NCBI GenBank assembly: GCA_029258825.1
Contig: JAPDKA010000003.1
Span: 2,065 to 66,064, forward strand
DNA length: 64,000 bases
Direction of reading: 5' to 3'
DNA from: an archaeon
GTDB taxonomy: Archaea > Nanobdellota > Nanobdellia > Pacearchaeales > JAPDKA01
This document shows, in pieces, positions 33,166 to 54,335 of this stretch. The notes beneath the pieces are model-generated. The model was given only the letters and a program-made list of their open reading frames with translations, ran no database searches and was not told the DNA's origin. The translations under genes were made by a program, and so were the position numbers. Position 1 is the first letter of the stretch; every line of letters starts with the position of its first letter.

Positions 33166-33870
33166 ATGAATTTTGCAAATAAAAGATTAAGCAGGATAAA
33201 TTGGGAAAGATATCACAATCCAAAATTAATAGAAAAATATAAAGAAAAAGCTATTGAAGGGTTGACAACAGAGGAAAAAGACATAATAAAGCAATACTGT
33301 CACAAATTTTTGAAAAAAAGAAACGTGAATGTGTTAGTTATAGGTAGCGGAAATGGACGAGAAATCTTTGGAATAAAAAATGAGTTCAACGTTAATTGGA
33401 AGTTTGTAGGCATAGATTATTCCCTGCCATTAATAAAACAAGCTAAAGAGATAAGAAAAAAATTCAATATAAAGAATGTTAGCTTCATTTGCAAGGATAT
33501 CACAAAAATAAAATTAAAAAAGAATAGTTTTGATATAGTTCTCGCATTTAACTGTTTTCTTGATCTGATCATTGGAAAAAACAAAGAAAAGCTAATTAAG
33601 AAAATTTCTGAATGGTGTAAACCTGGCGGGATTATTATATTCAATCTTAACCGAATACGTAACTTTTTACCTGAAATGTTTATCAAAATAATAAGAAAAG
33701 ATTTTTCTTTTGTGATAATAATGAATGATGAAATAGGGATCAAAACAGCTGTTAACCCGCTTCCTTCCTTTATTTACAAAAAGATTATCTTCAAAAAATA
33801 TTTAAAAATTATAAAAATTATTTTATGCAAACATACTTACTATATTGTTTGTACTTCAATTAGAAATTAA
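33166..33870 (+). CDS. class I SAM-dependent methyltransferase
   Basis: VLVIGSGNGRE (motif I), IDYS, DIVLAFNCF, and PGGIIIF. Confidence 0.5.
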   Translation: MNFANKRLSRINWERYHNPKLIEKYKEKAIEGLTTEEKDIIKQYCHKFLKKRNVNVLVIGSGNGREIFGIKNEFNVNWKFVGIDYSLPLIKQAKEIRKKFNIKNVSFICKDITKIKLKKNSFDIVLAFNCFLDLIIGKNKEKLIKKISEWCKPGGIIIFNLNRIRNFLPEMFIKIIRKDFSFVIIMNDEIGIKTAVNPLPSFIYKKIIFKKYLKIIKIILCKHTYYIVCTSIRN

Positions 33871-33875
33871 GAACG

Positions 33876-34325
33876 TTACTCCTCAAGTTCGCCTTCTTCA
33901 GCAGGTTTTTCTTCTTCGGTTTCTTCCTCTTCGACACCTTCAAGCATTTCTCTGACAGTTTCTTCAACAACTTCTTTTTCTGCCTCTTTCTTTTCCTCTT
34001 CAAGCTCTTCTTTTGGTTCAACAACTTCTTCAAGCTCAACAGCTTCTTCTTCAAGTTGCTCTATTTTTAGAGGAGCAGGCCTACGTATCGTGATAGGCAA
34101 CACACCCGCCATGAACTCAAGCTCAGCAATTTTTATAGGATCATAACGCACAGCACGGAGTTCATCATCGCTAAGTTTTAATAGTATAGGCGCATTCATG
34201 CTTATTTGCAATGCCCTCGCACCGATTATTCTAGCAATTTCAAATCTAGTGTAGTGCCTATAAATAGAAGGTATTTCTTCCTTAATACGGACTTGCAACG
34301 AATCTTTAAGGTATTCGCGCTTCAT
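33876..34325 (-). CDS. rpoK: DNA-directed RNA polymerase subunit Rpo6/RpoK with a long acidic C-terminal extension
   Basis: [22 protein letters not shown] matches the Rpb6/RpoK core. The last 65 aa or so are almost pure E/K/V. Confidence 0.65.
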
Positions 34326-34361: not shown

Positions 34362-35204
34362 TTATTTTTCTTTGCTTGTTGCTTTTTTTGTTTTTGCTTT
34401 TTTTAACTCTTTCTTCACAATATCGAGCAAGTATGATGCCGCTTCTATAGCTCTATCAAAAGCACTGCCAAGTTCATCAATTGAAAACGGTTCTATGCCA
34501 TGTTTTTGCAATGCATTTATGACCGGCTTGTTTTTTGGAAATGATACAGCCACACTTATGCCAGCCTCAACAGTTTTTTCTTCAACACTTGTAGGGTCGA
34601 TAAGCAGATTACCATTTATTTTGTAAACAGTTACAAGTATTGGCATTTTATCGTCGACAAGCGGCAATGGCTTGTCTGTAAATTCACCAAACAATACTTT
34701 ATCGTTTTCGTATTTTGGTAGTACTGCAGTTTTCAAGGCTAAAACACTAGCAAGAGCTGCAGCATCAAGCAGGTTGCCATCATCATTGATAGGATAAATA
34801 TCAAGATAGATTGCCCAAACTTTTTCACCAGGTTTTATGCATAGTTTTTTAAAATCAATAAAACCGCTCTCACGAATACCTCTATCAATAATCCTGCTTA
34901 ACTCTATTGCTTTTGCATCGGGTGCGCCTGGCTCAAACTCGTCTGAAGCTAAAGGAATAAGTTCTGCTGACGTGATTAATATGCCTTCCTCCGGCGTATC
35001 AGGAAATGGTTCGAGAGCATTAAGCTTAACACCAGCAATAACCTTCGTATTGCCAAATTCTACCATTACACTGCCTTCAGCATTTTTTGAAACACCGAAT
35101 GTTATTTTTATGTCTCTATATTCGTCTGCTTTTCTGTTATCCAACCTTATATTTTCATCCAACAATTCTGCTATACGCTTTTTTGTTATTTTCGATATCT
35201 CCAT
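34362..35204 (-). CDS. rrp42: exosome complex component Rrp42 (RNase PH-like)
   Basis: RNase PH fold signature RLDNRKADEYRDIKITFG, and position after rrp41. Confidence 0.75.
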   Translation of the reverse strand: MEISKITKKRIAELLDENIRLDNRKADEYRDIKITFGVSKNAEGSVMVEFGNTKVIAGVKLNALEPFPDTPEEGILITSAELIPLASDEFEPGAPDAKAIELSRIIDRGIRESGFIDFKKLCIKPGEKVWAIYLDIYPINDDGNLLDAAALASVLALKTAVLPKYENDKVLFGEFTDKPLPLVDDKMPILVTVYKINGNLLIDPTSVEEKTVEAGISVAVSFPKNKPVINALQKHGIEPFSIDELGSAFDRAIEAASYLLDIVKKELKKAKTKKATSKEK

Positions 35205-35209
35205 TTTAT

Positions 35210-35914
35210 TTATTCATATTTTATTTTTTTCAACACATCAACTTGCAGCTTGTGTATTTTTTCGCATGCTTTTTGGCCTAGTTTTATTGCCTCAAGCAAT
35301 TCCTGCTTTGTTATATCACCATCAAGCTGAAGCAAGCTGATTTTTTTCGATATAGGTAAGTATGCTAATGCAATGTCTGTTGCCATCTTTACACCATTCT
35401 CTTCATAATCCTCCTCATCTTTGGAAACATCAACCACAAGCTTACCGCCGATTTTACCTACAGAAACTGCAGTGACAAGCTCTTTCATAGGTATGCCTGC
35501 ACTAGCTAATGCAAGCGATGCAGCATTTATACCAGCAACCCTTGTTGAAGCATTTGCCTGCATCACATAAACAAAAACATCAACAACAGCATTAGGAAAG
35601 TTTTCAAGCATCAACGCAGGCTCTAAAGCACGTGTTGACACGCTCGAAATCTCTATGCTTCGTCTTGTGGGGCCGGGCCTTTTGCGCTCTTTAACAGAGA
35701 AACTCATCATATCATAGTAAACCCTCAACAAAGCTTTTTCAGGATTTTGCAAATGCTGTGGATAAAGCTGTCTAGGCCCATAAACAGCAGCAATAGCTAC
35801 TGTATCACCGAATGCAAACAATGCCGAACCGTTTGCTTTAGGCACAACATTGATTTCTGCTCTGATCGGTCTAGTTTCATCAAACTTCCTACCATCAAAA
35901 CGTTTGGTGTACAT
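35210..35914 (-). CDS. rrp41: exosome complex exonuclease Rrp41 (RNase PH)
   Basis: RFDGRKFDETRPIRAEINV...GSALFAFGDT. Confidence 0.8.
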   Translation of the reverse strand: MYTKRFDGRKFDETRPIRAEINVVPKANGSALFAFGDTVAIAAVYGPRQLYPQHLQNPEKALLRVYYDMMSFSVKERKRPGPTRRSIEISSVSTRALEPALMLENFPNAVVDVFVYVMQANASTRVAGINAASLALASAGIPMKELVTAVSVGKIGGKLVVDVSKDEEDYEENGVKMATDIALAYLPISKKISLLQLDGDITKQELLEAIKLGQKACEKIHKLQVDVLKKIKYE

Positions 35915-36614: not shown

Positions 36615-36686
36615 TTGTAATAATGTTACTTGCTTTAATTTGGTTTTATTTTATTTGTTAAAAAATATATTTTTGATTTTTGCTTT

Positions 36687-37202
36687 TCAGCTACTCATCA
36701 TTTTCTGCCTTTTTAAATCTTTTGTTTTGTAATTATGAATTTCATTTTTAAGCATAGTTCTTATTTTTTCGATTTGCTCATTTGTTATAGTGTTAATCAG
36801 CTCTTTTATTTCCAAAATTAAATCTCTTAGTTGATCAAAGTTAATTGTAACTTTTTTATTTTTCAAATAATATTGATTATCAATTCTCAACTCTTTATCT
36901 CTTTCAAGCATTTTAGCAATCCCCTTCTTTATGATTCCCTGTCTCTCAAGAAACTTTAAAATTTCTATTGTGCAAATATGTATTTCCGATTTTATACCTA
37001 TACGCATTAGTAATGCATATAACGCAAAGTATTCGCAATAATATTTTGTAGTGGCTAACCACATATTAGATTTTTTCTCTATAGCCCTTAATACAAGTAA
37101 AGTTTCTTCTGCACTTCGTAGGTATTCTCTTGCAAGATTTTCGTTTGGTTCGATAAATTTCACCTCTTTTTTATTAAAACACCACTTTAACTTATCAACC
37201 AT
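36687..37202 (-). CDS. HEPN-domain protein (toxin-antitoxin partner of the adjacent MNT)
   Basis: PF05168-like pattern NLAREYLRSAEETLLVLRAIEK...KYYCEYFALYALLMRIG...SEIH. Overlaps the MNT gene by 16 nt. Confidence 0.55.
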   Translation of the reverse strand: MVDKLKWCFNKKEVKFIEPNENLAREYLRSAEETLLVLRAIEKKSNMWLATTKYYCEYFALYALLMRIGIKSEIHICTIEILKFLERQGIIKKGIAKMLERDKELRIDNQYYLKNKKVTINFDQLRDLILEIKELINTITNEQIEKIRTMLKNEIHNYKTKDLKRQKMMSS

Positions 37203-37735
37203 TTTATTAACTCCTCACTTCCTTGAACAATAAGATGTTTATTAATAATTTCTTTTTTTAAAGTTTCATTTACTTGTTTTAAATTTTCCACATGGATTAT
37301 ATGAAACTTCAAATTAAGCTTCTTCTCTAAAACCACTAATTCTGATTTTTTTAGTTTACCTACAACTAGCATATCTACATCTCTTGCTTTTTTCAAAGAG
37401 TGTGTAGCAGAACCAAAAATTAAGATCGGGTTATCAAATTTATGCAAGTAACTAACAATTTCCTTTAGCAATAATTCTTCTCGACATCTTTTAATCAACT
37501 TTTCTTTTTCAATTATTGTCAAATAATCTATAAGTAGAGGATTATGTTTTAATTTGTAAAATGTTTGTCTACCTTTTTTTTCTTTTGAAATTAAACCGAT
37601 TTTTTCAAATACAGCTAACTGCTTTCTTACAGTTGTATGGGGCGACTTAAGTTTTCTTGAGATCTCTGCTAAATGAACAGGTTCTGAATATAACAATGGT
37701 TCTAAAATTGACCAAATTGAAATTTTTTTAACCAT
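37187..37735 (-). CDS. wHTH-fused minimal nucleotidyltransferase (MNT) of a HEPN/MNT pair
   Basis: N-terminal wHTH (LAEISRKLKSPHTTVRKQLAVFEKIGLI) and nucleotidyltransferase motif ILIFGSATHSLKKARDVDMLVV (GS...DxD). Confidence 0.65.
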   Translation of the reverse strand: MVKKISIWSILEPLLYSEPVHLAEISRKLKSPHTTVRKQLAVFEKIGLISKEKKGRQTFYKLKHNPLLIDYLTIIEKEKLIKRCREELLLKEIVSYLHKFDNPILIFGSATHSLKKARDVDMLVVGKLKKSELVVLEKKLNLKFHIIHVENLKQVNETLKKEIINKHLIVQGSEELIKWLIS

Positions 37736-37833
37736 GTTGTTATTTTTGTAACGAATATTTAAAAATGTTTCGATTCAATTTTTAGAAATACAACAAATTA
37801 AGAGAAGCTTAGAAGCTTTATTTTTAATTATTT

Positions 37834-39015
37834 TTATTTACTCTTTTTTACAAATTTAGCTTTCGCAACACCCCAACGCACAAGCAAGTTTGAGAAAAGT
37901 ACAGGCACGACAAACTTAAACACTATGCTTGAAGCTACAATTATGCTATACAAATCTGATGCAACTAAACCATAATCATACAAAATTTTTATGATAATAA
38001 TACTTGTACTAAATCTAACAGACAAACTAATTCCAAGAAGTAATGATTGTCTTGGAGTTAATTCACGTCTTGCCACAATAAAGCTCGCTAAGAGCTTGGC
38101 ACCTTTCGATACAACAACAACAAGAATGATAAGCAAAGGAAAAGTAAGTAAGTAATGCATATCCAAACTTGCGCCAACCCATAAGAAAAATATTGGTGCA
38201 AAAAAACCGTAACAGATGGCTTTAACTTCATTCTTAATTAACTCTACACGTTGTTTCGGCATGAACGTCTTTAAGCTTATGCCGGCAAGTAAAGCAGCGA
38301 GAGGAGAAGCTTCAGCAAGATTACCGATTCCTAAAAACAAAAACAAAACAAACAAAGCAAATAGCAACAATGTTTCTATGCTAAAGAAAGCAAACTTTTT
38401 GCCGTACTTTTTGAATTTTGTAAACACAACAGTAAGCAAAAACAACATGAATAAGGAAAACAATATAGCGTGAATGCTGAATTGTGTTTTGAAACTAGAA
38501 CCAACCAAAAGCGAAACAAGAATCAATGTAAAAATTTCAAAAATATCATCAAGAGTACCGATACCAATAATAGACTGGCCAAGCTTTGTGTTTATTATGC
38601 CAAACTCATCCAAGATAGGAACAAGAATTGCCTCTCCAACTGTAGCAAAGGAAAGTGAAACAAGAAACGAGATAAACCAAGAATAGTGAAAAACAAAACG
38701 AATAAGCAAACCGCCGAACAATGCTTCAAATAAAATGATGAATAATGTCGCTTTAACAATAAACTTGCTGTGTGTTTTTAATTCTTTTAAGTCTATTTCA
38801 AAACCGATTATAAAAAGTAAGAAATACATGCCTAACTGTGCAAGCAAGATAAACGCTTGTGATGAAGTAATTTCAGAGAAAGGGTTATGAATGGCTAAAA
38901 AAGCTCCTATAAGCAATGCTGCAAAAATCCATGGCACGCGAATTTTTTCAATGGCTCTACCTAGCAAAAACGTCAGCAAAAACATTAATGCCAAAAACAA
39001 AAACAGGTTTACCAT
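37834..39015 (-). CDS. cation:proton antiporter (Na+/H+ exchanger, CPA family)
   Basis: About 12 TM helices, GTLDDIFEIF, and a Kef/NhaP-like architecture. Confidence 0.7.
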   Translation of the reverse strand: MVNLFLFLALMFLLTFLLGRAIEKIRVPWIFAALLIGAFLAIHNPFSEITSSQAFILLAQLGMYFLLFIIGFEIDLKELKTHSKFIVKATLFIILFEALFGGLLIRFVFHYSWFISFLVSLSFATVGEAILVPILDEFGIINTKLGQSIIGIGTLDDIFEIFTLILVSLLVGSSFKTQFSIHAILFSLFMLFLLTVVFTKFKKYGKKFAFFSIETLLLFALFVLFLFLGIGNLAEASPLAALLAGISLKTFMPKQRVELIKNEVKAICYGFFAPIFFLWVGASLDMHYLLTFPLLIILVVVVSKGAKLLASFIVARRELTPRQSLLLGISLSVRFSTSIIIIKILYDYGLVASDLYSIIVASSIVFKFVVPVLFSNLLVRWGVAKAKFVKKSK

Positions 39016-39244
39016 AAACAGAACATTATTTTTGTGTTTTTAAATTCAACGTTGCATTTTTTAGCTTATCGTCAATCTTTTTCAATTCTTTTGTTGCAAT
39101 GATTAACTGTGGTAGAATATCAAGATATAGGGTTGCAATAGGGCTATGGCTAGTTATTTTTCTAACAAAATTATAAACTCTAACAAAATTGTTGCTTTGC
39201 TTGTCGTTTTTTGTTTTGCTTTTTTTCATTTTGCTTGTAGAAGA

Positions 39245-39955
39245 TTATTCTCTAACACCAAGGTCTTTTGTTAATGCTGTTCCATTCGTTAATTTATTTA
39301 GTTTGTTGTAGAACTCTGCCTGTAATGCTGTAGGTATTGTTACAATGCAACGCAATGAGCCATCGTCAAGCCATTCTTCTTGTTGTTTGTTGTATCTAGC
39401 AAGAAAGCTGTATGCTTTTCCTGTGTATGCTGCAGGCACAATTACTTCAAGTTGCATAACCTCAAGCTTTAGTGGGAGTACTTTTTGCAATTCAGAAATT
39501 ACTCTGTTGATTTGCTCGTCAACACTCTTAAATTCATCGATTTTTATTCCCGCTTCTTTTATGGCTTTTTCAATTCTTTCTGGTGATGGTACCGTTCTCG
39601 TTACAGTATCTATTGCATTTCTTGCAAGAAAACTAATGATTTGCTTTAATTTTTCTTCTCTCAATTTTGCTCTGTATTCGGTTGGCAATTGTAATTCACC
39701 ATAAAGCAAGATTTGCTTTGCTATTTTATAAACATCGTCTGTACCAAACGCTTCCACAAGGTCTTGAGTGCTTGGCTTTAATCCTTTTTTATGATCAGTA
39801 AATATTGTTGCTATTGCCAACACATTGCTGAGTTCTAGTTTTAATTGTTCATCATCAAGCTTGTTGAGTTTTTGTTTTAGCTCTATGGCTTTGTCAAGAT
39901 CGACTAGAATTTCAAAATGCTTGCCAGCCTTCTTTATTCTGGCTATAGTCTCCAT
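39245..39955 (-). CDS. sdo1: SBDS/Sdo1 ribosome maturation protein
   Basis: ARIKKAGKHFEILVDLDKA, the FYSB N-domain, and position downstream of psmA. Confidence 0.7.
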   Translation of the reverse strand: METIARIKKAGKHFEILVDLDKAIELKQKLNKLDDEQLKLELSNVLAIATIFTDHKKGLKPSTQDLVEAFGTDDVYKIAKQILLYGELQLPTEYRAKLREEKLKQIISFLARNAIDTVTRTVPSPERIEKAIKEAGIKIDEFKSVDEQINRVISELQKVLPLKLEVMQLEVIVPAAYTGKAYSFLARYNKQQEEWLDDGSLRCIVTIPTALQAEFYNKLNKLTNGTALTKDLGVRE

Positions 39956-39974
39956 AGCAAAAGCCGGCGTTTAA

Positions 39975-40688
39975 TTATTTTACATATTTTTTAATTTGAT
40001 CCTTGCTTAAACGTGTTGCTTTTTCTCCATCTTTAACCATAACAACATCAAGACGATCGATGTTAAACTCATTGCCTAGAAGTTTTTTCATTATGCTAAT
40101 GCCTAACTTGATTGCGTCATCAATGCTCATGCCTTCCTTGTAGCTTTTTCTTAACATTTCTTTAGCTTTTTCATCTTTCTCACCGATTGCTGTTGCTTTA
40201 TACGCTACGTAGTTGCCAGTAACGTCTGTAACATAAAGTTTTTTTTGCTTGTTAGGGTTTACTCCTGCAAACATTACCTCAACGCCGAATGGTCTGGCAC
40301 CACCGTATTGTGTGAATGCTTGTTTAAGATTTGCTACATCTCTAACAACTGCTTCAACATCGATAGCATCATCATAAGTAACTCTGTGTTGCTGCGCTAA
40401 CAATTGTGCACGCTCGATAAGTATGCGTGCATCGCTTAGTATGCCTGCCGCACTTGCTATGATATGATCATCTATTTCGTGCACTTTATACATACTTCCA
40501 CCTTGAATTAAGCTATCTTTAATACGTTTATCTGCAACAATTACAACACCGTCTTTGCATACAAAACCAATAGAAGTCGCGCCGAGTCGCACTGTTTTTT
40601 CAGCATACTCAACTTGCAATAGCCGCCCTTCTGGGCTAAACATTGTAGCTGCTCTATCATAACCCATCAAACCTGCTTGGATGTCCAT
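39975..40688 (-). CDS. psmA: proteasome subunit alpha
   Basis: YDRAATMFSPEGRLLQVEYAEKTV at the N-terminus and GATSIGF. Confidence 0.9.
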   Translation of the reverse strand: MDIQAGLMGYDRAATMFSPEGRLLQVEYAEKTVRLGATSIGFVCKDGVVIVADKRIKDSLIQGGSMYKVHEIDDHIIASAAGILSDARILIERAQLLAQQHRVTYDDAIDVEAVVRDVANLKQAFTQYGGARPFGVEVMFAGVNPNKQKKLYVTDVTGNYVAYKATAIGEKDEKAKEMLRKSYKEGMSIDDAIKLGISIMKKLLGNEFNIDRLDVVMVKDGEKATRLSKDQIKKYVK

Positions 40689-40730
40689 ACTCCTACATAA
40701 TTGAGATAGTTTTTAAATGTATCGATAATT

Positions 40731-41072
40731 TTAATATTTGAACTTCCTTTCATAATTCTTATGATCAAGCCATTCCAAAATTATTAGAAGAATAATTACA
40801 TTACTGCCTTTTATAGTATAAATTAATCTCCAAGCATTGGGAAGGTTGTATTTCCATAGATTATCAAGTTTTCCAAATCTTTTGTGATATTCTTTGGGAA
40901 TTAATCTCTTCGGAATTTGAATACCACAAAAAGGATTTTCTTCTAAATCTCCAAAAGCTCTTTCTAACCACTCTCTTAATTTTTTGTCTTCAGTTTTTGA
41001 GTTTTTTAATTTTTCAAAGGCTTTTTTAACCCGCTCATCGGCAAATACAACTTTTGACTTCATTTCTTCCAA
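40731..41072 (-). CDS. RelE/ParE-family toxin-like protein
   Basis: LWKYNLPNAWRLIYTIKGSNVIILLIILEWLDHKNY fits the RelE/ParE core (hydrophobic-R-hydrophobic-hydrophobic-Y ... ighR/HK..Y). 113 aa. Confidence 0.5.
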   Translation of the reverse strand: MEEMKSKVVFADERVKKAFEKLKNSKTEDKKLREWLERAFGDLEENPFCGIQIPKRLIPKEYHKRFGKLDNLWKYNLPNAWRLIYTIKGSNVIILLIILEWLDHKNYERKFKY

Positions 41073-41329
41073 AATAGATGTTTTTTCTTTAGATATCTAG
41101 CTACAGCTTCTTCATCAAAAATCCATGCAACTTTTCCTTCCTTATCAATAGCTATCTTGCCTGACTTGAGCAAATAATCGAATATTACACAAAAAGTCTG
41201 GTACATAACTTTCCTTGGAAGTTTTTCCCAAATTTTATTTTTTGTAAATTCTCCAGAGTGCTTTCTAATAAATTCTTCTACCATAAGTACAGTATCCAAT
41301 CTTGGGTAATGTAGGATTTGTGTAGGCAT
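41060..41329 (-). CDS. putative cognate antitoxin (small protein overlapping the RelE-like gene by 13 nt)
   Basis: 89-aa ORF immediately upstream of and overlapping the toxin-like gene. No recognisable DNA-binding motif, so the assignment rests on context. Confidence 0.35.
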   Translation of the reverse strand: MPTQILHYPRLDTVLMVEEFIRKHSGEFTKNKIWEKLPRKVMYQTFCVIFDYLLKSGKIAIDKEGKVAWIFDEEAVARYLKKKHLFWKK

Positions 41330-41448
41330 TTTAATTTTTTATTTGTTTTTAGTTATATAAATTTATATATTATATAAACTTATATAATTTATGAAATTTA
41401 AGCTTTATAAACCTTTTGTTCAAATTACTAAAATTACTAATTTAAATA

Positions 41449-44034
41449 CTAATCTATTTGTTGCATTTCTTCAAGTTCATTCAAAAATCGGTTGATTGTC
41501 TTGATTAAATGCTCTGGCTGTGTTCTGATTACGCTGCATGCTTGTTTTAACAATATATCGTCAGTAGCATCAATTGCTTCAACGCTATTAAATTGTTTTT
41601 TGAGCAATTCTGTATCTTGCTCGCTTGGCTGCTTTTTTGCTTTTCTTAACTTTCTCAATTTTTTCCATTTTTTAAACAGCAAATCGATTGCATTCGGTAA
41701 TTGTTGTTTGGTTACTCCAAGCAAGGCGCTTGCTTGTTCAAGCAAGCTTGCTATAGCATTGCTCACTTGTTTTGCTTTTTCACCAGCAACAAACACAAGT
41801 CTATATGTATTGTCAGCAATCTTATCAATGCTAACAATCTTTATCATGCCTGCTTCGCTTGTATTGCTTAAATGTGTGCCGCCGCATGCTTCTATGTCAA
41901 GATTGTCTATTTTTACAATACGCAACTCCTCAACAGGTATAGCACCACCTTGGTAAATTCTAAATCCATATTGTTTTTCAGCAGTAGGCCTGGGCAGTAT
42001 TTCTGTAGTTACATCAATAGCATCGTTAATTACCTTATTTGCGATAGCTTCAATTTGCTGTCTTTGATCATCGCTTATCTGCTTGTAATGTGTTATGTCA
42101 AGGCTTGCCTTTTCATCGCTCACAGCACTACCTGTTTGCCATACATGATTGCCAAGAACTTGCCTGCATGCATAATTAATAATGTGAACAGATGTATGAT
42201 GTTTCATAATGCTCAAACGTCTATCAGCATCAATACTGCAGTTAACTTCATCATGCTGTGTTAAACCTTCAGTAGAATTAACAAAATGCACAATAACATT
42301 ATTATATTTCTTCACATCAATAACTTTTGCTGTAGTTTTCCCATTAGAAATGATGCCTGTATCTGCAATCTGCCCGCCAGATTCTGCATAAAATGCTGTT
42401 TTGTCAAGCACAACAGCATTCAGTTTATGGTTTATTGCCACTATGCTTGCTTTGAATTGCTTAATCATCGGTTTTTCATAAAACAATATTTGTGTTGGTT
42501 CAAGTTTGATATGCTTATTGATATGCTCTAACCATTCTTGCCATTCTTGTTTTGCCTGAATTTTTTTCTTTTTTATTGTTTCAAGAAGTTCGTAAAATTC
42601 TGTTGTGTTTAACTGTATGTTGTTTTTCAAAGCATATTCTCGCAGCAATTCTGGCTGGATGCCTTTACTTTGATAAAGTTCAAGAAGTTCATTGCCAGTT
42701 ATAACAGCACTATTTTCTGCTTTTTTCTTTTCGATAACTTTAACTATTAAATTGGCAAGCTTGTTGCGTGTTTCGTTAAATTTTTTCTGTTCTATTTCAA
42801 ATAGCTCTATAAAACGGTCAAGCGTGCCTTCATTAATTTGTTTGAATTTTGCTATTAACTTTAGTTCTAGCTCGACAAGCTTATGCAGATCAATTTCAAT
42901 GTTTAGAGCATGCATGAAGTTGAAGATACGCCTGAATAAAACACGTAAATTATAACCACCGCCAGTGTTGTTGGGCAATGCATAATCGTCTATAGCTAAA
43001 ATAAGACTGCGCAAGTGATCTGCAATGCTGTAAATAGCTTGTAACGGCAGAATATGCTGTTTATATTCACTAGTGCTTATTCCTATTTTTTTTAATGCGT
43101 CGCTAAAATTAACAGTATCTAGTTCAATGCTTGACAGCTTTTTGAGGAATGATGTATAAATTTGTGAATGCTCATCATAGTTGACAAGTTTTTTCAACAG
43201 CTTTAGCGTGTTTGCATAAACAACATCATACTGTGTTAATGTTCGTTGCATTAGCCAAGTAAATCTGCCAAGCCCAGCACCCATATCAATTACTTTTTGT
43301 TTCATAACTGTAAACTGTTCTGGAGTGCCCAGAAATTCTGTAAAGACGCAATTGCCCAGCTCTAAGCCACCAACAAAATATTCTAAGCTGTAACCAAAAG
43401 CACCAGCACCAAGCCAGGCGTCCTCCTTAAATGTTATATGCTCTGGCTTTATTTTGAACACCTCTGTAAGCATTCTGTAATCAAGTTCAACAGCATTTTC
43501 CTTCCAATAACCTTGTTTACCATCATACAAGCTGTGCTGTCCTATCATTACAAAGCTTGTTGCATGCCTGCCTGTTAAGCCTACTTTATCTATGTCATTA
43601 AAACGCAAGCAAAACTGAGGTATGATTAAAGGATTGGCAGGAAACTCAAACACAGTAGCATCGTTAGTTTTGCGCTGGAATGCAACAATACTAGCAAGAG
43701 TAAAGCTCAAACCTGGAAACCACCTGCACACAACAGGATAACTAAGCAAAGCAACATGCCCATTTTTAACAAAAAAGTTCTTGATTGCTTGCCAAGTTTC
43801 AACATAATCTAGTTTGGCATTAGCATAGCTCTTATCGAGAAAAGTATAGCCAACACAGCCAGCATCATTGCAGTAATCTTGCTCAACAACACTCCAAAAA
43901 TATCTGCCGCATTTCTTACATTTTTGCCTTTTGAAGCCATGCTCAATCAAGAAATCAATCTTCCAGTAGTCTTGCCATTTTTGCTGCAGCTGCTTCAACA
44001 GTTGCAATTTCTCTTGCATAGACAAGCAAAGCAC
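41449..44034 (-). CDS. alaS: alanyl-tRNA synthetase, archaeal type
   Basis: Archaeal N-terminus with CKKCGRYFW, the editing-domain HxxxH...C motif (HHTSVHIINYACRQVLGNHVWQTGSAV), and a C-terminal DHHA1-like region. 861 aa. Confidence 0.9.
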   Translation of the reverse strand: MLCLSMQEKLQLLKQLQQKWQDYWKIDFLIEHGFKRQKCKKCGRYFWSVVEQDYCNDAGCVGYTFLDKSYANAKLDYVETWQAIKNFFVKNGHVALLSYPVVCRWFPGLSFTLASIVAFQRKTNDATVFEFPANPLIIPQFCLRFNDIDKVGLTGRHATSFVMIGQHSLYDGKQGYWKENAVELDYRMLTEVFKIKPEHITFKEDAWLGAGAFGYSLEYFVGGLELGNCVFTEFLGTPEQFTVMKQKVIDMGAGLGRFTWLMQRTLTQYDVVYANTLKLLKKLVNYDEHSQIYTSFLKKLSSIELDTVNFSDALKKIGISTSEYKQHILPLQAIYSIADHLRSLILAIDDYALPNNTGGGYNLRVLFRRIFNFMHALNIEIDLHKLVELELKLIAKFKQINEGTLDRFIELFEIEQKKFNETRNKLANLIVKVIEKKKAENSAVITGNELLELYQSKGIQPELLREYALKNNIQLNTTEFYELLETIKKKKIQAKQEWQEWLEHINKHIKLEPTQILFYEKPMIKQFKASIVAINHKLNAVVLDKTAFYAESGGQIADTGIISNGKTTAKVIDVKKYNNVIVHFVNSTEGLTQHDEVNCSIDADRRLSIMKHHTSVHIINYACRQVLGNHVWQTGSAVSDEKASLDITHYKQISDDQRQQIEAIANKVINDAIDVTTEILPRPTAEKQYGFRIYQGGAIPVEELRIVKIDNLDIEACGGTHLSNTSEAGMIKIVSIDKIADNTYRLVFVAGEKAKQVSNAIASLLEQASALLGVTKQQLPNAIDLLFKKWKKLRKLRKAKKQPSEQDTELLKKQFNSVEAIDATDDILLKQACSVIRTQPEHLIKTINRFLNELEEMQQID

Positions 44035-44136
44035 GATGGTTTTATAAATTTAATCAAAAAATAATAGTCATTTCTTAATATATTCACTTAAAAGTAACGA
44101 AAGGTTTATAAATGAAAAAGAATTAGTAATATCATA

Positions 44137-44934
44137 ATGGGAAACACATACAAAAAGAGCCTGGAGAAAATTGTGGAAGAATTAAGAATAGTAGACCAAT
44201 ATATAAAAAAAGAAAAGCCAAATCTTATAGTAGTACCTTTAAGAGGAGCTGCACCATTTATAGACATACTCAATATAATTGATGACGAGTTCCCAAATGA
44301 AATAGTTGAGTACATCATAGCATCAAGTTGCGTAAAAAAAGTGAGGGAGATCATAAAAAAATCTTTATTTAGTCTAATAGTTGATAAATTATTTGATGGT
44401 GGAAAAATAGTTTTTATTGATGAAGTTGTAAGTGGTAATTCCTTGGTAAGGATATATAAGCAATTTCATGCAGCATTGAATGAATATGCTGAAAGAAAAA
44501 TAATTAGCATTTATGGAAAAGACGTTGATATGACTAGGGAAAATATTCAAAACTATAAAGAATCGCTTATTAAAAAATTTGAAGAAAGACATATAGGATT
44601 AGTAGAAAAAAAGAAGGTAAATAAAAACAAAGAATACCTAGAACTTGTTAATGAAGGGATTGTAATCCCTTTTTATGTTCAGCGTATTCCTACAAGGGAT
44701 CAACCAAAATACAGAATAATACATTATAGAGAAAAACCTTTGGAAGAAGATAGAATAAGATATCTTCCTGAAATTGAAAAGGTGGAAGCATCTCAAGAAT
44801 ATTTAGAATTACTAAAGGATGTCGCCATGATTATCGGTAAGGACCCTGAATCTGTAAAGATAAATAATATTGAGAAAATCTTGAACGCAAACGAATGGCC
44901 TAAACTCTATGATGAATTGAAAGAGAGCGTGTAA
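44137..44934 (+). CDS. hypothetical protein with phosphoribosyltransferase-like (PRTase type I) motifs
   Basis: LIVVPLRGAAPF and IVFIDEVVSGNSL resemble the PRPP-binding loop (hydrophobic4-D-D/E-x2-S/T-G). Confidence 0.35.
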   Translation: MGNTYKKSLEKIVEELRIVDQYIKKEKPNLIVVPLRGAAPFIDILNIIDDEFPNEIVEYIIASSCVKKVREIIKKSLFSLIVDKLFDGGKIVFIDEVVSGNSLVRIYKQFHAALNEYAERKIISIYGKDVDMTRENIQNYKESLIKKFEERHIGLVEKKKVNKNKEYLELVNEGIVIPFYVQRIPTRDQPKYRIIHYREKPLEEDRIRYLPEIEKVEASQEYLELLKDVAMIIGKDPESVKINNIEKILNANEWPKLYDELKESV

Positions 44935-44935
44935 A

Positions 44936-45505
44936 TTAACCACTCAATAAATTTTTACTTGATTGTAAGGTTGCTAATTGATTTAACAGGATAGAATAAG
45001 GAGTATCGGCGTCTGCTAAACCGACAAATTGTATTTCAGGCCTTGGTAATGTGCTTCCTGCTGTTTGAATATTAAGAGAAGCTAAACCAACCATTCTCTC
45101 TCCCAAACCTTGAGAGACAGCCACATCAGTTATCTTATATAAAGGAATACTCTTAATCTTTCGTGAAATAACACCTCCTTTAAAGATAACTCTTTGAGTA
45201 GTTATATAATATTCGTAAGTTTTTATTAAGGCTATATTGTATAGAAATATGATTAGTAGCAATATAACAAAACTAACTGGAACAATAATAGTCAAATTTT
45301 GGTGAACCACGAAGAACGCTATACCTATAAATAAAGTAATAAATAAAGCTGGAATTATGGAATCGAAAAACCATAAAACGAGAAGTTTGCCACTTGGACG
45401 ACCCTGATATAAAATCTTTTCATTCTTTTGTAGGGTAAATCGCATAATATCAAAAATTAGCTTAAGCTTTATAAAATTAACGTGATTCTGTAGCAATAAA
45501 TACAC
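44936..45505 (-). CDS. membrane protein with bacterial-type PH domain (YdbS/DUF304-like)
   Basis: Two TM helices followed by ...TTQRVIFKGG...IPLYKITDV.... The likely start is MRFTLQ (M21). Confidence 0.5.
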   Translation of the reverse strand: MYLLLQNHVNFIKLKLIFDIMRFTLQKNEKILYQGRPSGKLLVLWFFDSIIPALFITLFIGIAFFVVHQNLTIIVPVSFVILLLIIFLYNIALIKTYEYYITTQRVIFKGGVISRKIKSIPLYKITDVAVSQGLGERMVGLASLNIQTAGSTLPRPEIQFVGLADADTPYSILLNQLATLQSSKNLLSG

Positions 45506-47043: not shown

Positions 47044-50013
47044 TTATTTTTTATGAATTACTTCAAAAATCGATTTAATAGTATCGAACCAATATTTTTT
47101 ATAACCCTCCGAAGGCTTATTTTTATCTTTTGTAAACAAGAAAAGAAATACTCTTATTTTGAAATTGTTATGAGTAAAAGCCTTAGGTTTTTCTTTTTCT
47201 TCAAAGAATTTTCTAAACCAGTCAACTTTATGTTGATATTCTGATCTACCTATGCCTTTTGGATCTACAAACACAATAAAGTAGTTGTCTCCCTTAGCAA
47301 ACCAAAATATAAAATCTGGTTTAAACTTTCGAATTTTATTCGATTCAGGATCATAATAAGGTATAAAAACCTCGTCAAAATATTCATCTATTTTACTGAA
47401 TAACCACCAATCTACAGATATACTTTTTATATTTTTCTTAAGGAATTGCTCTAATTTCTCAATAAATTCTACTTCACTTTTTGTTTTTATCACATGTTTA
47501 ATGTAATCAATCTTTTCTTTTTCTGAAAGGATTAAGGGAACATAATAATGGTTTATTATATGTTTTATTCTCAAATCTTTAAATCTTTCTTCCTTTGAAA
47601 GTCTGGCAAGTTTTTCTATTTCGGTAGCGAATTCGTCTATTTTTATCTCACCTTTTTCAAGCATAATTTTTAACTCCTCTTTTCTCTTCTCAGAAAACCT
47701 AAATTGAGAAACATTTCTTATTTTTTCTTTTAGCTCATTCATTTCTTCTTTCGTTTTTAGAAATACTTTAATTTTCTTAAAATGCACTATTTCCTCCTCG
47801 AGTTTCTTAAATCTATCAAATTCTTCGATATCCAAATTAAAGTGACTTATTAATTTTTGTGCTATTACAAATAAGGGTAAAGTCGGATTGTCAACGATTC
47901 TATAATATGTGTTTGCATTTTGAAAACTTTTTTTTATATGTTGCAACAATTCTACAGACAAATTGTTTTGCATAAGTAGAACTCTATCGTCTATTTCATT
48001 AAAGTATTTTTGAAGTAATTCATAATCTTGTTGAGATATAATGAACTTCTGTGGTTCTTTTATTTGATACAATTTTTTACCAGAGAATTTATAAACAGGA
48101 ATTAAAAGTATTTTCTCTTTAGCTTCTTCAACCACTTCCAATTCAAGAGTTTCTTCTATCTCTTTCTCTATTTTTAATGTTTTTATAACTTCTTCCAGGG
48201 CACTTCTGTTTGTACCGAAAATGAATAACGTCTCTAAAGGCTGAACTAAAAAATCTCCACCAATTTCCATGAACATTTCGTCATCTTCTCCTCTATTGTA
48301 AAGATTTTTTAACCTCTTTCTTCTATCTTTAATAGGTTCTATTCTTACTCCTCTTCCAACAGATTGAATGACGAATTTCTTTGCTTCTGTACCAGTACCT
48401 ATATTTATGAAGAGAATTATATTTGGTCTGTTTGAATCCCATCCCTCATAGAAAGCTCTAGATCCCATTAAAATGCTTATATCTTCTCTTCTATCTAGCT
48501 CCTCAAATACACTCTTATCTTCAAATTGTTCGGTCGGAGTATATTTGTAATCTTTCAAGTTGTCTTTAACCCATTTTAGTGCGTTTCCTATTCTAATTAA
48601 TGCAAATGCTTTATGACTACTTTTCAATTTAAGTACTATTTCTTTATTCGTGCCTGGAATAAGGGTATATTCTACTTGACCAAATGAAGAAGAATTATAA
48701 ACAAATTTTAATATGTCTTGGAGAGTTATCTTTTTTAGAATATCTCTTTGAATGATTAGTGGAATACTCTCATACAATAGCAAAGGTTTTTCAGAAAGTT
48801 CTTGTAAGATTTCCTCTTTAGCCTCCTCAAAAATCTTGGTGTTGACATCACCTTTTCCAATTTTTTCTATTTCTTCAAAAAATAATTTTAGATCTGGTTT
48901 CTCTTGCTTTGCTTCTATAAGATTGACTGTGTTAACTAGAGTTAACATCAATGGCTCGTGATAAACATTTTTTACAACTTTTCTTATCTTTTTTGCAATT
49001 TTCTTAACATAAGTCAAAAGAATCAAAGATTTCAAAACAATTTTTTGCTTTTCAGCTCTATTATAATCTTCCTTTTCCCTAAAAGCCCTTATCTCTTGTT
49101 TTAAAATATAAATGTGCTTTCCGTAACCTTGGGAAATAAACTTTTCTAAGTTAAAGTTATAAGCAGTAGTTATTCTATCGTGCTCATCAGTAAATGTTGC
49201 TGAAAAATTAAATAAAAATCCGTTTCTACTCATTATGGAGTAAATAAATTTAGCTTTTGATTCTTGCATTTTACCTTTGTGTGCTTCATCCAAAATTATG
49301 TACCAGTTACCATTATTTTCATAATTTCTAAAATCTATTCTTACGATTCCTTTCTCGTCCACAACATTTGTTGATTTGTAGAAAAATACACAAATTTGAT
49401 TGAAATATGAAATTAAACTCTCTTTTTTTATTTTATCATACTCTGTCAACTCTGCAAGATTTACTTTAAATCCCCTTTCCATTGCCAATTCATTAAATTC
49501 TTCTATATGCTTCTTTAATTGATTTATTAAATCATCTCTATGAGTCAAAATTAGAATATCTTTCTTCGGAATTTCTCCAGCATCCATCAATTTTTTTAGA
49601 ACTTCTATTAATTTTACTATCAACAAAGTTTTCCCGCTTCCGGTAGCCATCCAAAAGGCGGCTCTGTTTATAAAATTCTTGAATTTTATATTTCCATCTT
49701 CTATTGGATAATATTCCTGAAGAATATTGGCTATTTTTCTCTTAACCTTTGCTAATTTTATATCTAAATTTCTTTCTAAATCTTCATCTAAACCATTAAG
49801 CACATATCTTTGATAAAATTTTGATTTATCTGCTTGATCTTCTTTGAAGAAAAGATAAAGTACTTTAATAGCATTTTTCAGTCCTTCTTGTTGAAAATCC
49901 CAAAGTTTTTTCTTTTTTGAAAAACTTACTGTATCTAATAAACTCCAAGGGGTAGGTAAATCATCAAAATTTATTTCTTCAACTATTGATTGGAGGATGG
50001 GTCTAAGGATCAT
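47044..50013 (-). CDS. res: Type III restriction enzyme Res-like protein: SF2 DEAH helicase with C-terminal PD-(D/E)xK nuclease
   Basis: Q-motif LWDFQQEGL, Walker A WMATGSGKT, DEAH box ILDEAHKG, motif III SAT, motif VI QSVGRGVRI. C-terminal FKPDFIFWF...IVFVDPKG is a PD...D-x-K nuclease motif. 989 aa. Confidence 0.75.
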   Translation of the reverse strand: MILRPILQSIVEEINFDDLPTPWSLLDTVSFSKKKKLWDFQQEGLKNAIKVLYLFFKEDQADKSKFYQRYVLNGLDEDLERNLDIKLAKVKRKIANILQEYYPIEDGNIKFKNFINRAAFWMATGSGKTLLIVKLIEVLKKLMDAGEIPKKDILILTHRDDLINQLKKHIEEFNELAMERGFKVNLAELTEYDKIKKESLISYFNQICVFFYKSTNVVDEKGIVRIDFRNYENNGNWYIILDEAHKGKMQESKAKFIYSIMSRNGFLFNFSATFTDEHDRITTAYNFNLEKFISQGYGKHIYILKQEIRAFREKEDYNRAEKQKIVLKSLILLTYVKKIAKKIRKVVKNVYHEPLMLTLVNTVNLIEAKQEKPDLKLFFEEIEKIGKGDVNTKIFEEAKEEILQELSEKPLLLYESIPLIIQRDILKKITLQDILKFVYNSSSFGQVEYTLIPGTNKEIVLKLKSSHKAFALIRIGNALKWVKDNLKDYKYTPTEQFEDKSVFEELDRREDISILMGSRAFYEGWDSNRPNIILFINIGTGTEAKKFVIQSVGRGVRIEPIKDRRKRLKNLYNRGEDDEMFMEIGGDFLVQPLETLFIFGTNRSALEEVIKTLKIEKEIEETLELEVVEEAKEKILLIPVYKFSGKKLYQIKEPQKFIISQQDYELLQKYFNEIDDRVLLMQNNLSVELLQHIKKSFQNANTYYRIVDNPTLPLFVIAQKLISHFNLDIEEFDRFKKLEEEIVHFKKIKVFLKTKEEMNELKEKIRNVSQFRFSEKRKEELKIMLEKGEIKIDEFATEIEKLARLSKEERFKDLRIKHIINHYYVPLILSEKEKIDYIKHVIKTKSEVEFIEKLEQFLKKNIKSISVDWWLFSKIDEYFDEVFIPYYDPESNKIRKFKPDFIFWFAKGDNYFIVFVDPKGIGRSEYQHKVDWFRKFFEEKEKPKAFTHNNFKIRVFLFLFTKDKNKPSEGYKKYWFDTIKSIFEVIHKK

Positions 50014-50720
50014 AGTTTTTCACCAAAGTGTTTCTTATGAAGCTCTTTAATTAAATCTAAAATGTCTTGAAAATTAGTCTCCTCTATTTCTTTTTTAGTA
50101 GCGATATGATAAAGTGAATGTGCCATTTCATTAGCTCTCTCTTTAAATCTATCGGCTAATTGACATATTCTTTCTACAATTTTTCTTTCACTTTCAAAAT
50201 CCTTGCTATAGATACTAAGATTTTTCAATAAAACATTGAAATCGTGATTTCTTTTTCTATTAAAGTCAAAATACTTTTCTTTATGTTCTTTCTTCTTTTC
50301 CGGATATTTTTTCCGTAGAATTTCTACTATCAAGTTTTCTAACACTTTTCTCATTAATACAAAACAGGCAGTATAACATTTATGGGTGTATGTTTTATTG
50401 ATCTCATTGATATGAGCTTTTAGAAATTTGTTGTTAGTTTCAAATTTTGCAATTTCTATGATTTTTCTTTTTTTATATTGTTTAGGTATTTTAATAGTAA
50501 CCTTTTCTATTTTTATATTTTCCATCGACTTTCTATCTTCTTCTGATAAATATTTTGCAACAGAAATTCCTTTTTTTTTAGCAAATATATGTGCTGCGGC
50601 ATTTATTGTAAGTTGGGGGTAGTCCCTTCGTATTTCTGATAGTTTAGTTCTGATACTTCTTTCTTTACATCCGGTTCTTTTTTTTAAAATTTCTAAAATT
50701 TTAGGATTAAGTCTTTTCAT
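50010..50720 (-). CDS. HEPN-domain protein, DUF4145-like (restriction-system-associated)
   Basis: YTACFVLMRKVLENLIVEIL...FKERANEMAHSLYH has the DUF4145-type conserved helix and Rx5H (RANEMAH). The stop overlaps the res ATG (ATGA). Confidence 0.5.
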   Translation of the reverse strand: MKRLNPKILEILKKRTGCKERSIRTKLSEIRRDYPQLTINAAAHIFAKKKGISVAKYLSEEDRKSMENIKIEKVTIKIPKQYKKRKIIEIAKFETNNKFLKAHINEINKTYTHKCYTACFVLMRKVLENLIVEILRKKYPEKKKEHKEKYFDFNRKRNHDFNVLLKNLSIYSKDFESERKIVERICQLADRFKERANEMAHSLYHIATKKEIEETNFQDILDLIKELHKKHFGEKL

Positions 50721-50994
50721 TTTTATCGCTTGATTTCTTACGTTTTGAATAAAGGTAAGATGAAACGCTTCCTCGGTCTTTATATCCTAGAATATCGGCT
50801 ATTTCTGTTGGTGTGAAATTGAGAGAATGTAGTATTTTAACTGAAGTTTCAACTGTAAATTCTTTTTTACCTAAAATTTTGTGCAACTCTATAAAAAATC
50901 TAATAATCGCATTTAATCTTTTTATAACTTTTATGTTCTCGTTTTCTTCGCTCAAACGTTTTTTACTTTTTCTTTGTTTTTTCATCTTTAACAC
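50707..50994 (-). CDS. mini HTH protein, paralog 4 of a tandem array (sigma70-r4/LuxR/HTH_10-like)
   Basis: A hydrophobic helix LNAIIRFFIEL followed by NFTPTEIADILGYKDRGSVSSYL. Overlaps its neighbours at both ends. Confidence 0.5.
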   Translation of the reverse strand: MLKMKKQRKSKKRLSEENENIKVIKRLNAIIRFFIELHKILGKKEFTVETSVKILHSLNFTPTEIADILGYKDRGSVSSYLYSKRKKSSDKNEKT

Positions 50995-51160
50995 CTTTTA
51001 TTTTACTTAAAGGAAGAATGTGACGTACAGTACTATCGTCAATATTTAAAATTTTTCCAATATCTTTTGAGGTAAGACCAACTTGTGCCAGTTGCAGAAT
51101 TAACAAAATAGTCAATTTTTTGTCGATCTCTTCTAACTTTTTTAATATTTTTTCATTCAT
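50963..51160 (-). CDS. mini HTH protein, paralog 3
   Basis: LTILLILQLAQVGLTSKDIGKILNIDDSTVRHIL. Confidence 0.5.
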   Translation of the reverse strand: MNEKILKKLEEIDKKLTILLILQLAQVGLTSKDIGKILNIDDSTVRHILPLSKIKGVKDEKTKKK

Positions 51161-51386
51161 TTTTCTTACCTCTTTTTAATAAGGATTTTTCTTTAGCCAC
51201 ATATTTTTCGGAGATGTCGAGTATTTTAGCAATGTCTTTATTACTTAGACCAAATTTAGATAATAGTTTTACCCCCTCTTTGATTGTGAGTTGTTTACCT
51301 TTAAGATTTAAAAATATAAGTACACTTAATTTTGCGCTTATTTCTTTGAATATTTTTTCTATCTCCCCTACCATTTTATTCACCAT
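51153..51386 (-). CDS. mini HTH protein, paralog 2 (closest to the LuxR/GerE-type consensus)
   Basis: LSVLIFLNL...LTIKEGVKLLSKFGLSNKDIAKILDISEKYVAKEKS resembles GLxNKEIAxxLxISxxTV. Confidence 0.55.
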   Translation of the reverse strand: MVNKMVGEIEKIFKEISAKLSVLIFLNLKGKQLTIKEGVKLLSKFGLSNKDIAKILDISEKYVAKEKSLLKRGKKNE

Positions 51387-51630
51387 TTAAAGCTTTCTTT
51401 AATTTTTCTCTTCGTTTTTTAATTGTTGAAATCTCAACTGCTATATAGGATGGTTTTTTGTTTAGTAATTGTGCAATTTCCTTATAGTTTAATCCTGCAT
51501 TATACAAGGTTGCAATTTTTTCTCTAAGTGTAATTTCTTTTTCTGTATAACCTTCTCTCAAATCTATAAGTAACGCTATAATCATGTTAAGCTTCTTTAG
51601 TAATTGTTCACGAAATTCTTTTTCTTCCAT
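51376..51630 (-). CDS. mini HTH protein, paralog 1
   Basis: MIIALLIDL...ITLREKIATLYNAGLNYKEIAQLLNKKPSYIAVEIS. Confidence 0.55.
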   Translation of the reverse strand: MEEKEFREQLLKKLNMIIALLIDLREGYTEKEITLREKIATLYNAGLNYKEIAQLLNKKPSYIAVEISTIKKRREKLKKALNGE

Positions 51631-51736
51631 AGTAATATTTTAACTAAATTAAACTTTAAAAACTTTTTGGTTATTGTTTTTTTTCCTTGAAAAATGCATT
51701 TTTCAAAAATGTGAAATTTAGTTTTATTTAGTTAAG

Positions 51737-54229: not shown

Positions 54230-54335
54230 ACTTTTTTAACCTTTTCTATCCCCGCACAGTCAAAAATCCTGCCGACTCAAAACCAACCTTACCAACCATA
54301 TTATAGAGCTTAATGAATTTAATGAATTTTACGTT

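Follow-up and report, generated by a model that had tools for sequence, protein, structure and literature searches.

In a small Pacearchaeota (DPANN) genome, the proteasome/exosome superoperon has been opened between SBDS and rrp4 by a 2.6-kb segment that carries a cation:proton antiporter gene and an overlapping gene pair. The pair encodes a winged helix-turn-helix minimal nucleotidyltransferase (wHTH-MNT) and a HEPN protein. The segment lies within a 64-kb stretch of DNA, hereafter the window, whose positions serve as coordinates throughout. It is probably a lineage-specific insertion at the boundary between psmA-SBDS and rrp4-rpoK, in which the antiporter stands beside an unrelated, self-regulated MNT-HEPN cassette of a selfish or defence type that does not act as an exosome regulator.

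All genes from alaS through rpoK (44034 down to 33876) occupy the minus strand, and the window keeps the superoperon order psmA-SBDS-rrp4-rrp41-rrp42 on that single strand. The segment adds an open reading frame (ORF) of 67 amino acids (aa), the antiporter, wHTH-MNT and HEPN between SBDS and rrp4, and rpoK closes the string:

40688..39975, minus strand: psmA, proteasome alpha subunit, the upstream flank of the insert (NF003075, PF00227)
39955..39245, minus strand: SBDS ribosome assembly factor, the last conserved gene before the insert (TIGR00291)
39229..39026, minus strand: 67-aa orphan ORF, without family support
39015..37834, minus strand: CPA2-type cation:proton antiporter, membrane domain only, 393 aa (PF00999)
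37735..37187, minus strand: wHTH-MNT, 182 aa (motif, fold, NF033788, PADLOC PDC-M05A)
37202..36687, minus strand: HEPN protein, AF0298-like (HEPN-T type), 171 aa (family profile, fold)
36686..36615, minus strand: HEPN-rrp4 spacer, containing a T6 run and, ~20 nt ahead of the rrp4 ATG, the rrp4-upstream element AAATTAAAG, which is also present in locus L005
36614..35916, minus strand: rrp4, the first exosome gene past the insert (NF003181)
35914..35210, minus strand: rrp41 (RNase_PH match on record for the identical gene in locus L004)
35204..34362, minus strand: rrp42 (RNase_PH match on record for the identical gene in L004)
34325..33876, minus strand: rpoK (NCBIfam 74.8 bits, cut-off 57; Rpb6 match for the identical gene in L004)

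The initial annotation of this DNA had described a psmA-SBDS-rrp4-rrp41-rrp42-rpoK string with a same-strand insert of about 2.6 kb at the SBDS/rrp4 junction, containing a CPA-family antiporter and an overlapping wHTH-MNT/HEPN pair, and each of these elements lies where it had been placed. Curated cut-offs are passed by psmA (NF003075, 277.6 bits against 219; PF00227, E 7e-52), SBDS (TIGR00291, 203 bits against 126.55) and rrp4 (NF003181, 217.3 bits against 200). Between the stop codon of SBDS and the start of rrp4 lie 2,630 nt. The overlap of the MNT and HEPN genes measures 16 nt (37187..37202), as given originally, and gaps of 98 nt and 72 nt precede MNT and rrp4, respectively.

The most direct evidence for an insertion comes from the same junction in relatives. 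Rrp4 homologues place the genome in Pacearchaeota, and Pacearchaeota relatives were reached by protein search and contig look-ups. Scans of genome and metagenome contigs with Rrp4 peptide patterns found only Methanomethylophilaceae loci, which serve only as distant synteny controls. The loci compared are designated by L numbers, and their identity to the window is given for Rrp4:

L005/L006 (closest), Rrp4 69% identical: SBDS, a 192-bp spacer, rrp4
L017, Rrp4 62%: a 12-bp gap (SBDS ends at 4989, rrp4 starts at 5001)
L007/L008, Rrp4 62%: the junction holds only an unrelated 80-aa ORF
L018, Rrp4 59%: rrp4-rrp41-rrp42-rpoK-enolase retained, with no psmA or SBDS upstream
L001-L003 (Methanomethylophilaceae), Rrp4 38%: SBDS adjoins rrp4

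The order psmA-SBDS-rrp4-rrp41-rrp42 is thus seen uninterrupted in L001-L003, L007 and L017, and nucleotide homology to L005 ends at about 39264, inside SBDS, and resumes at about 36655, ahead of rrp4. Since L005/L006, L007/L008 and L017 are without the insert and the junction is broken in L018, the 2.6 kb are derived and lineage-specific; the earlier view of this DNA as an insertion into the superoperon holds, and an ancestral arrangement does not. About 40 nt upstream of rrp4 are similar between the window and L005, which would fit start signals of its own for rrp4, with the upstream element as a putative promoter. At the SBDS/rrp4 junction the superoperon can be pried open or disrupted. Because the L005 spacer, the rrp4-upstream element and the break in L018 mark this junction as a natural boundary, the insert lies between transcription units and not inside one.

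The MNT-HEPN cassette is a self-contained unit of about 1.05 kb (approximately 37775..36758) that also occurs, at 74-78% amino-acid identity, in three other unrelated DPANN contexts:

L009/L010: the cassette adjoins folD/purN/purH
L013/L014: the cassette has an AliA_AliB-family (PF01889) gene on one side and an integrase fragment on the other
L011/L012, an Aenigmarchaeota genome: MNT follows a tRNA-synthetase gene

The 16-nt MNT/HEPN overlap recurs in L009 and L013/L014. At the nucleotide level, the cassettes are homologous from 30-40 nt ahead of the MNT ATG to near the HEPN C-terminus. In the window this homology stops at about HEPN codon 148 (about 36758); the last 24 or so codons match none of the other cassettes in nucleotide sequence, and the window HEPN exceeds its homologues in length by 14-16 residues. 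The cassette keeps a guanine-cytosine (GC) content of 0.27-0.31 whatever flanks it, the flanks ranging from 0.29 to 0.38. Homologues of MNT, with identities of up to 79%, carry the lineage labels Aenigmarchaeota, Woesearchaeota, Nanoarchaeota and Pacearchaeota, while the best non-self Rrp4 reaches 69%. The cassette is mobile, and both of its genes are under purifying selection. No antiporter gene is found near the cassette in L009/L010, L011/L012 or L013/L014, and the homologues of the window antiporter stand in still other contexts; the two halves of the insert thus differ in their history. An apparent 25-nt flanking repeat was rejected as not significant (931 of 2000 shuffles).

In L011 (6001..7129) and L012 (880..2325), MNT is intact and only the first 18 HEPN codons are left. 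The MNT there is either an orphan antitoxin or regulator, or its partner has been replaced. The HEPN remnant is followed by a gene of the metallo-beta-lactamase fold with a match to the Anti-Pycsar Apyc1 family.

That the insert arose as a chimera during metagenome assembly has next to no probability. The suspicion arises from an independent assembly of the same population, ERZ25515926, in which the HEPN gene is split between two contigs, with 169 nt missing between their ends (37162..36994 of the window). One of them, L019, is 100% identical to the window across 45015..37163, from alaS through MNT; the other, L004, is 99.99% identical from 36993 onward, covering the 3' part of HEPN through rrp4. 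The SBDS-antiporter-MNT and HEPN-rrp4 junctions are thereby each reproduced at 99.99-100% identity. A chimera is made very unlikely by the contig ends themselves, because they hold complementary portions of a single intact HEPN gene. The protein encoded across the break is, moreover, 76-78% identical over residues 1-148/156 to homologues that likewise overlap their MNT by 16 nt. The break could stem from differences among strains or from a repeat in another part of the genome; the 64-kb window contains no HEPN or MNT paralogue able to explain it.

The wHTH-MNT protein consists of an ArsR/SmtB-like winged helix (residues ~1-65), a helical linker and a minimal nucleotidyltransferase (NTase) domain (~100-182). 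By itself it falls below the Pfam cut-off (Polbeta 20.7 bits against 26.9, with NTP_transf_2 also below). The assignment made in the initial annotation nonetheless survives tests by profile and structure. Nearly all of the 214 homologues found are ~182-189 aa long, and F107-G108-S109-x9-D119-x-D121 is invariant in the 51 homologues compared, in agreement with the Pol-beta-type motif G[SG]-x9-13-Dx[DE]. In the structural model (mean predicted local distance difference test, pLDDT, of 88), the C-terminal half has an MntA-like fold, with Shewanella MntA (6m6u_A) as the top Foldseek hit. The N-terminal half matches winged helices of the SmtB/CzrA/SqrR type with a Foldseek probability of 1.00. It also matches NF033788 at E 8.9e-8 (31.8 bits, below the cut-off of 55), and the MNT profile reaches ArsR-family entries of the PDB at E 1e-4. 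By fold and profile, this domain is an ArsR/SmtB-type wHTH, for which DNA binding is predicted. A relative, P0286 (336 aa), is a HEPN-wHTH-MNT fusion and so ties the two families functionally.

The HEPN protein is likewise under the Pfam cut-off when searched singly (PF05168, 18.8 bits against 22), though its earlier identification stands once family profile and structure are considered. An exhaustive HMMER search with it yields 340 cluster representatives at E <= 1e-3. In the family profile and alignment, which comprise 69 sequences, 52 members match PF05168 (best E 6e-14). The profile matches the AF0298 HEPN structure 2hsb at E 2.4e-13 and also the entries 9xbd and 9xbc, named 'HEPN domain-containing protein'; the AF0298-like HEPN-T family (2hsb), together with these two entries, is the best match in both sequence profile and fold. 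Its AlphaFold model (pLDDT 96.7) shows the four-helix HEPN fold. The top Foldseek match is 2hsb, and the other best matches are sacsin HEPN, the AMPylated HEPN toxin 7ae6 and HEPN-MNT entries. An exact-sequence look-up returned no identical entry on record.

Within the 69-sequence alignment, Y54, Y55, Y58, G69 and R106 are invariant, and W7, C8, Y27, W48, E73, H75, C77, Q110 and Y111 nearly so. The canonical Rx4-6H RNase motif is absent, as the corresponding segment reads R106-I-D-N-Q-Y111 and has no His. AF0298-like HEPN-T proteins are known to retain the Arg, to have lost the motif His and to have, as an alternative, a conserved His within the insert that separates helices 2 and 3; they are predicted to retain an alternative active site (PMC3710099). 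The window protein has the same arrangement. Its H75 is conserved in at least 90% of sequences, follows helix 46-68 and precedes helix 75-87 of the model, and aligns with the His of 'SKTHRGT' in AF0298; the R-x3-[D/Q]-Y segments of the two proteins are also aligned. At the position aligned to Y111, 9xbd and 9xbc differ by Tyr versus Phe, which hints that the depositors regarded this Tyr as important; no publication on the two entries was found. Another chain of 9xbd bears the name 'nucleotidyltransferase domain-containing protein' and gives a weak match to the MNT profile (E 0.16).

The DPANN HEPN subfamily differs from AF0298 in an extra N-terminal W-C segment and in its E-x-H-x-C residues. 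W7-C8 (37184..37179) and E73-x-H75-x-C77 (36986..36972) are nearly invariant in the subfamily, and its cysteines are absent from AF0298 itself. These residues could form a metal or redox site.

The sequence upstream of MNT indicates how the cassette may be expressed. Three elements are recognised ahead of its start codon, the first being a B recognition element (BRE)-like motif:

37772..37767, minus strand: BRE-like CGAAAC, conserved in the window, L009, L011 and L013
37766..37756, minus strand: TATA box ATTTTTAAATA, conserved in the window, L009, L011 and L013
37752..37739, minus strand: palindromic operator GTTA-CAAAAA-TAAC between TATA box and ATG, recognised by its conservation

The common upstream element reads cGAAAC, TTTATAAATA, (T)TGTTA-CAAAAA-TAACAA, ATG. 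Its ~40 nt are almost invariant in the window, L009, L011 and L013 despite unrelated flanking DNA, and the operator core GTTACAAAAATAAC is identical at 14/14 nt in the four independent loci. Synonymous sites between these loci are saturated (proportion of synonymous differences, pS, 0.62-0.86), yet the nonsynonymous divergence (dN) is only 0.13-0.17. Because the element is near-invariant on this background, it must be under purifying selection along with both genes. A scan with sigma-70 promoter and intrinsic terminator models, which are ill-suited to archaea, found no enrichment. The operator and the first MNT codons (37739..37715, minus strand) resemble a 21-nt unit repeated in tandem, GTTACAAAAATAACAACATGG and then GTTAAAAAAATTTCAATTTGG, in which 16/21 positions are identical; this repeat may reflect two adjacent binding sites.

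Judged by archaeal promoter geometry and by its conservation, the BRE/TATA element is the presumed cassette promoter. It would fire a leaderless bicistronic MNT-HEPN mRNA, given that the centre of the TATA box lies ~26 nt ahead of the MNT ATG, as in leaderless archaeal promoters. The palindrome lies where a bound repressor would block initiation, and the ArsR-like wHTH of MNT presumably binds this GTTA-N6-TAAC site and represses its own promoter. An SD-like (Shine-Dalgarno-like) sequence, GTGAGGAG, stands ahead of the HEPN ATG within the end of the MNT gene, and the HEPN cistron may be translated from this internal site through the 16-nt overlap. Going by family analysis (PMC3710099), the AF0298-type HEPN would be an RNase that uses R106 and the alternative H75. 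By analogy with type VII HepT/MntA, MNT would neutralise it, most likely by nucleotidylylating Tyr111 beside R106. The module, which resembles the PADLOC candidate PDC-M05, would then have settled in an available intergenic gap.

The analogy rests on extensive likeness to type VII toxin-antitoxin (TA) systems. HepT/MntA of Shewanella (SO_3165/3166), Aphanizomenon and Legionella (PMC7641770; PMC11586414) have the same MNT-first overlap with the HEPN gene, so that adjacent, overlapping MNT and HEPN genes share one operon as they do here. The GS-x9-DxD motif, the MntA-like fold, the HEPN-fold partner and a conserved Tyr beside a conserved Arg are shared as well. Three differences separate the window pair from these systems. 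Its HEPN belongs to the AF0298-like/PF05168 clade and not to DUF86; it has Tyr in place of the motif His and a different conserved His (H75); and its MNT adds the N-terminal ArsR-like wHTH, so that MntA chains of ~120 residues match only the C-terminal domain. A further parallel is PDC-M05, an archaea-enriched candidate defence system of an NTase and a HEPN whose antiviral role is that of a candidate only (PMC12988326). The two-gene NTase and HEPN architecture is the same, and the window MNT matches PDC-M05A at E 7.4e-11, whereas its HEPN partner matches no PADLOC model at E <= 0.01.

In an alternative reading, the pair is not a TA system at all. It would instead be a conserved regulatory or nucleotide-modifying pair of DPANN, in which a wHTH-NTase and a non-canonical HEPN, acting as a nucleotide- or RNA-binding partner, fill a cellular role. 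The conservation is unusually high, at 74-79% identity across loci labelled as different DPANN lineages, with dN at ~0.15, well below the synonymous divergence (dS). The His of Rx4-6H is missing, W7, C8, E73 and C77 are family-specific and nearly invariant, and a possibly important role has been argued for a fused DPANN MNT-HEPN gene (PMC6393860). The alternative is nevertheless unlikely. The cassette has a patchy distribution and varying contexts, and the reduction of HEPN to 18 codons beside an intact MNT in L011/L012 is the typical decay of a dispensable module. The alternative active site predicted for AF0298-type HEPN proteins (PMC3710099) also speaks against it.

Another alternative, raised in the initial annotation, links the pair to its hosts. 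The TA genes would be co-transcribed with the superoperon, tying a toxin to proteasome/exosome expression, or the embedded module would stabilise an essential locus. Orientation on the same strand throughout and the short gaps before MNT and rrp4 are what such coupling would look like, HEPN proteins and the exosome both act on RNA, and a fused DPANN MNT-HEPN gene (cls.004259, NEQ050-like) is typically found in housekeeping contexts (PMC6393860). Against this, nearly every neighbour in DPANN genomes is a housekeeping gene. A conserved promoter and operator belong to the cassette itself, which occurs in unrelated contexts elsewhere; the closest relatives lack it at this junction, and the junction itself is a spacer with an rrp4-upstream element that is broken in L018. 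With a cassette that brings its own promoter-operator and sits at an operon boundary, the proposed coupling or stabilising role is not upheld, and functional coupling of either kind is very improbable.

Several points count against the view of the insert as an independent, self-regulated mobile cassette. Co-orientation and short gaps make read-through from psmA-SBDS across the insert into rrp4 possible. No cassette was found on viral contigs or plasmids (IMG/VR, PLSDB), and no direct repeats or target-site duplication above the AT-rich background flank the cassette or the insert. The third NTase carboxylate of MNT was not located, the invariant H145 standing at the expected place. The HEPN motif His is replaced by Y111, so the catalytic mechanism may differ from that of HepT. 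Toxicity, RNase activity, AMPylation and wHTH-operator binding are all predicted properties.

The antiporter half of the insert is securely identified as a CPA2-type Na_H_Exchanger protein (PF00999, 128.4 bits against a cut-off of 26.2, E 4e-37), as had been proposed. TIGR00932 scores 94.3 bits, below its cut-off of 238.3, and no further domain was detected with Pfam or NCBIfam. Homologues 61-70% identical occur in DPANN lineages, Methanohalophilus and one bacterium, in unrelated contexts. SBDS, the 67-aa ORF and the antiporter gene follow one another at intervals of 10-15 nt. The reading frame of the 67-aa ORF, listed in the original description, is indeed present; its status as a gene finds no backing, as it has no Pfam, NCBIfam or PADLOC match and no homologue in any fetched locus. 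It is probably non-coding leader or promoter DNA of the antiporter. Kinship with the 80-aa ORF in the same position of L007 was rejected for want of any similarity, and so was an origin as a decayed MNT N-terminus, for which hhalign and hmmsearch were negative. The 3' end of the antiporter gene weakly resembles the rrp4-upstream region of L005 (37 of 2000 shuffles), and this resemblance is not relied on.

A scan with the operator consensus places one more element inside the 67-aa ORF:

39166..39153, minus strand: second operator-like site GTTAGAAAAATAAC

It is preceded by a TATA-like TTTATAA (39177..39171, minus strand), lies ~140 nt upstream of the antiporter ATG and is present in the independent assembly L019 too. 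The site could mean that wHTH-MNT controls the antiporter, or it could be a relic or a chance match. If the first were true, the antiporter and the cassette would form a single three-gene regulon. The copy and its TATA-like box are on the same strand as the first operator and 1.4 kb from it. Allowing at most one mismatch, the consensus of the other loci matches the window twice against 0.11 expected, and the exact operator N-pattern is expected 0.018 times per window, in a test that was partly post hoc. Across ~200 kb of sequence from the other loci, every occurrence of the motif is at an MNT promoter. In none of these loci is the cassette accompanied by an antiporter or the motif present in a second copy, and the window site stands ~140 nt from the antiporter start. 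The similarity of the two operator regions spans 26 nt, and a generic local alignment of them is not significant (31 of 500 shuffles). A shared regulon is accordingly distinctly unlikely. Equally doubtful is its corollary that wHTH-MNT has taken on a transcription-factor role outside its own operon, making the 2.6-kb insert one regulon within the superoperon; were it true, a TA autoregulator would control a neighbouring ion-homeostasis gene in an archaeon.

As two neighbours of separate origin, the antiporter and the MNT-HEPN cassette illustrate that even a highly conserved archaeal gene string takes up cargo at internal boundaries in streamlined DPANN genomes. Insertions of MNT-HEPN modules into conserved operons of one strain and not its relative are already known, as in the lysine operon of T. 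thermophilus HB8 and in D. radiodurans (PMC2701414). In those cases and in that of the fused DPANN gene (PMC6393860), as here, a mobile MNT-HEPN module lies near housekeeping genes and is absent at the syntenic site of relatives. The present locus differs in that the host is the proteasome/exosome superoperon and the module is an unfused wHTH-MNT and HEPN. It is an ordinary case of a known mobile module, and the understanding of the exosome operon and of HEPN/MNT systems is unchanged by it. Spread across DPANN and recognisable by its promoter and operator, the compact wHTH-MNT/HEPN cassette could serve as a convenient model for the regulation of type VII-like TA systems in archaea.

Elsewhere in the window, a second TA-like pair lies between alaS and psmA (40731..41329, minus strand), where an 89-aa ORF, for which no family match was found, overlaps by 13 nt a 113-aa ORF encoding a ParE/RelE-like toxin (PF05016, 27.1 bits, cut-off 23). 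The pair has a low GC content of 0.29-0.32, and in L007 and L017 other genes precede psmA. The presence of this second, unrelated TA pair in the alaS/psmA gap suggests that the intergenic gaps of a compact genome are occupied opportunistically.

A low-GC island (0.26-0.30; 47044..55580, minus strand) resembles a restriction-modification or defence island. It encodes a 989-aa ResIII/SNF2-type helicase, three small HTH proteins, an 824-aa N6/N4 DNA methylase and an AAA_14/DUF4143 ATPase. The sole Rfam match of the window is a tRNA (17029..17133, minus strand) that, at 105 nt against a 71-position model, probably contains an intron. Between rpoK and enolase, on the opposite strand, lies a class I methyltransferase gene (33166..33870, plus strand) with the lowest GC content of the region (0.26). 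In L005, L007, L017 and L018 enolase follows rpoK with no called gene between them, and the methyltransferase gene may be another lineage-specific insertion.

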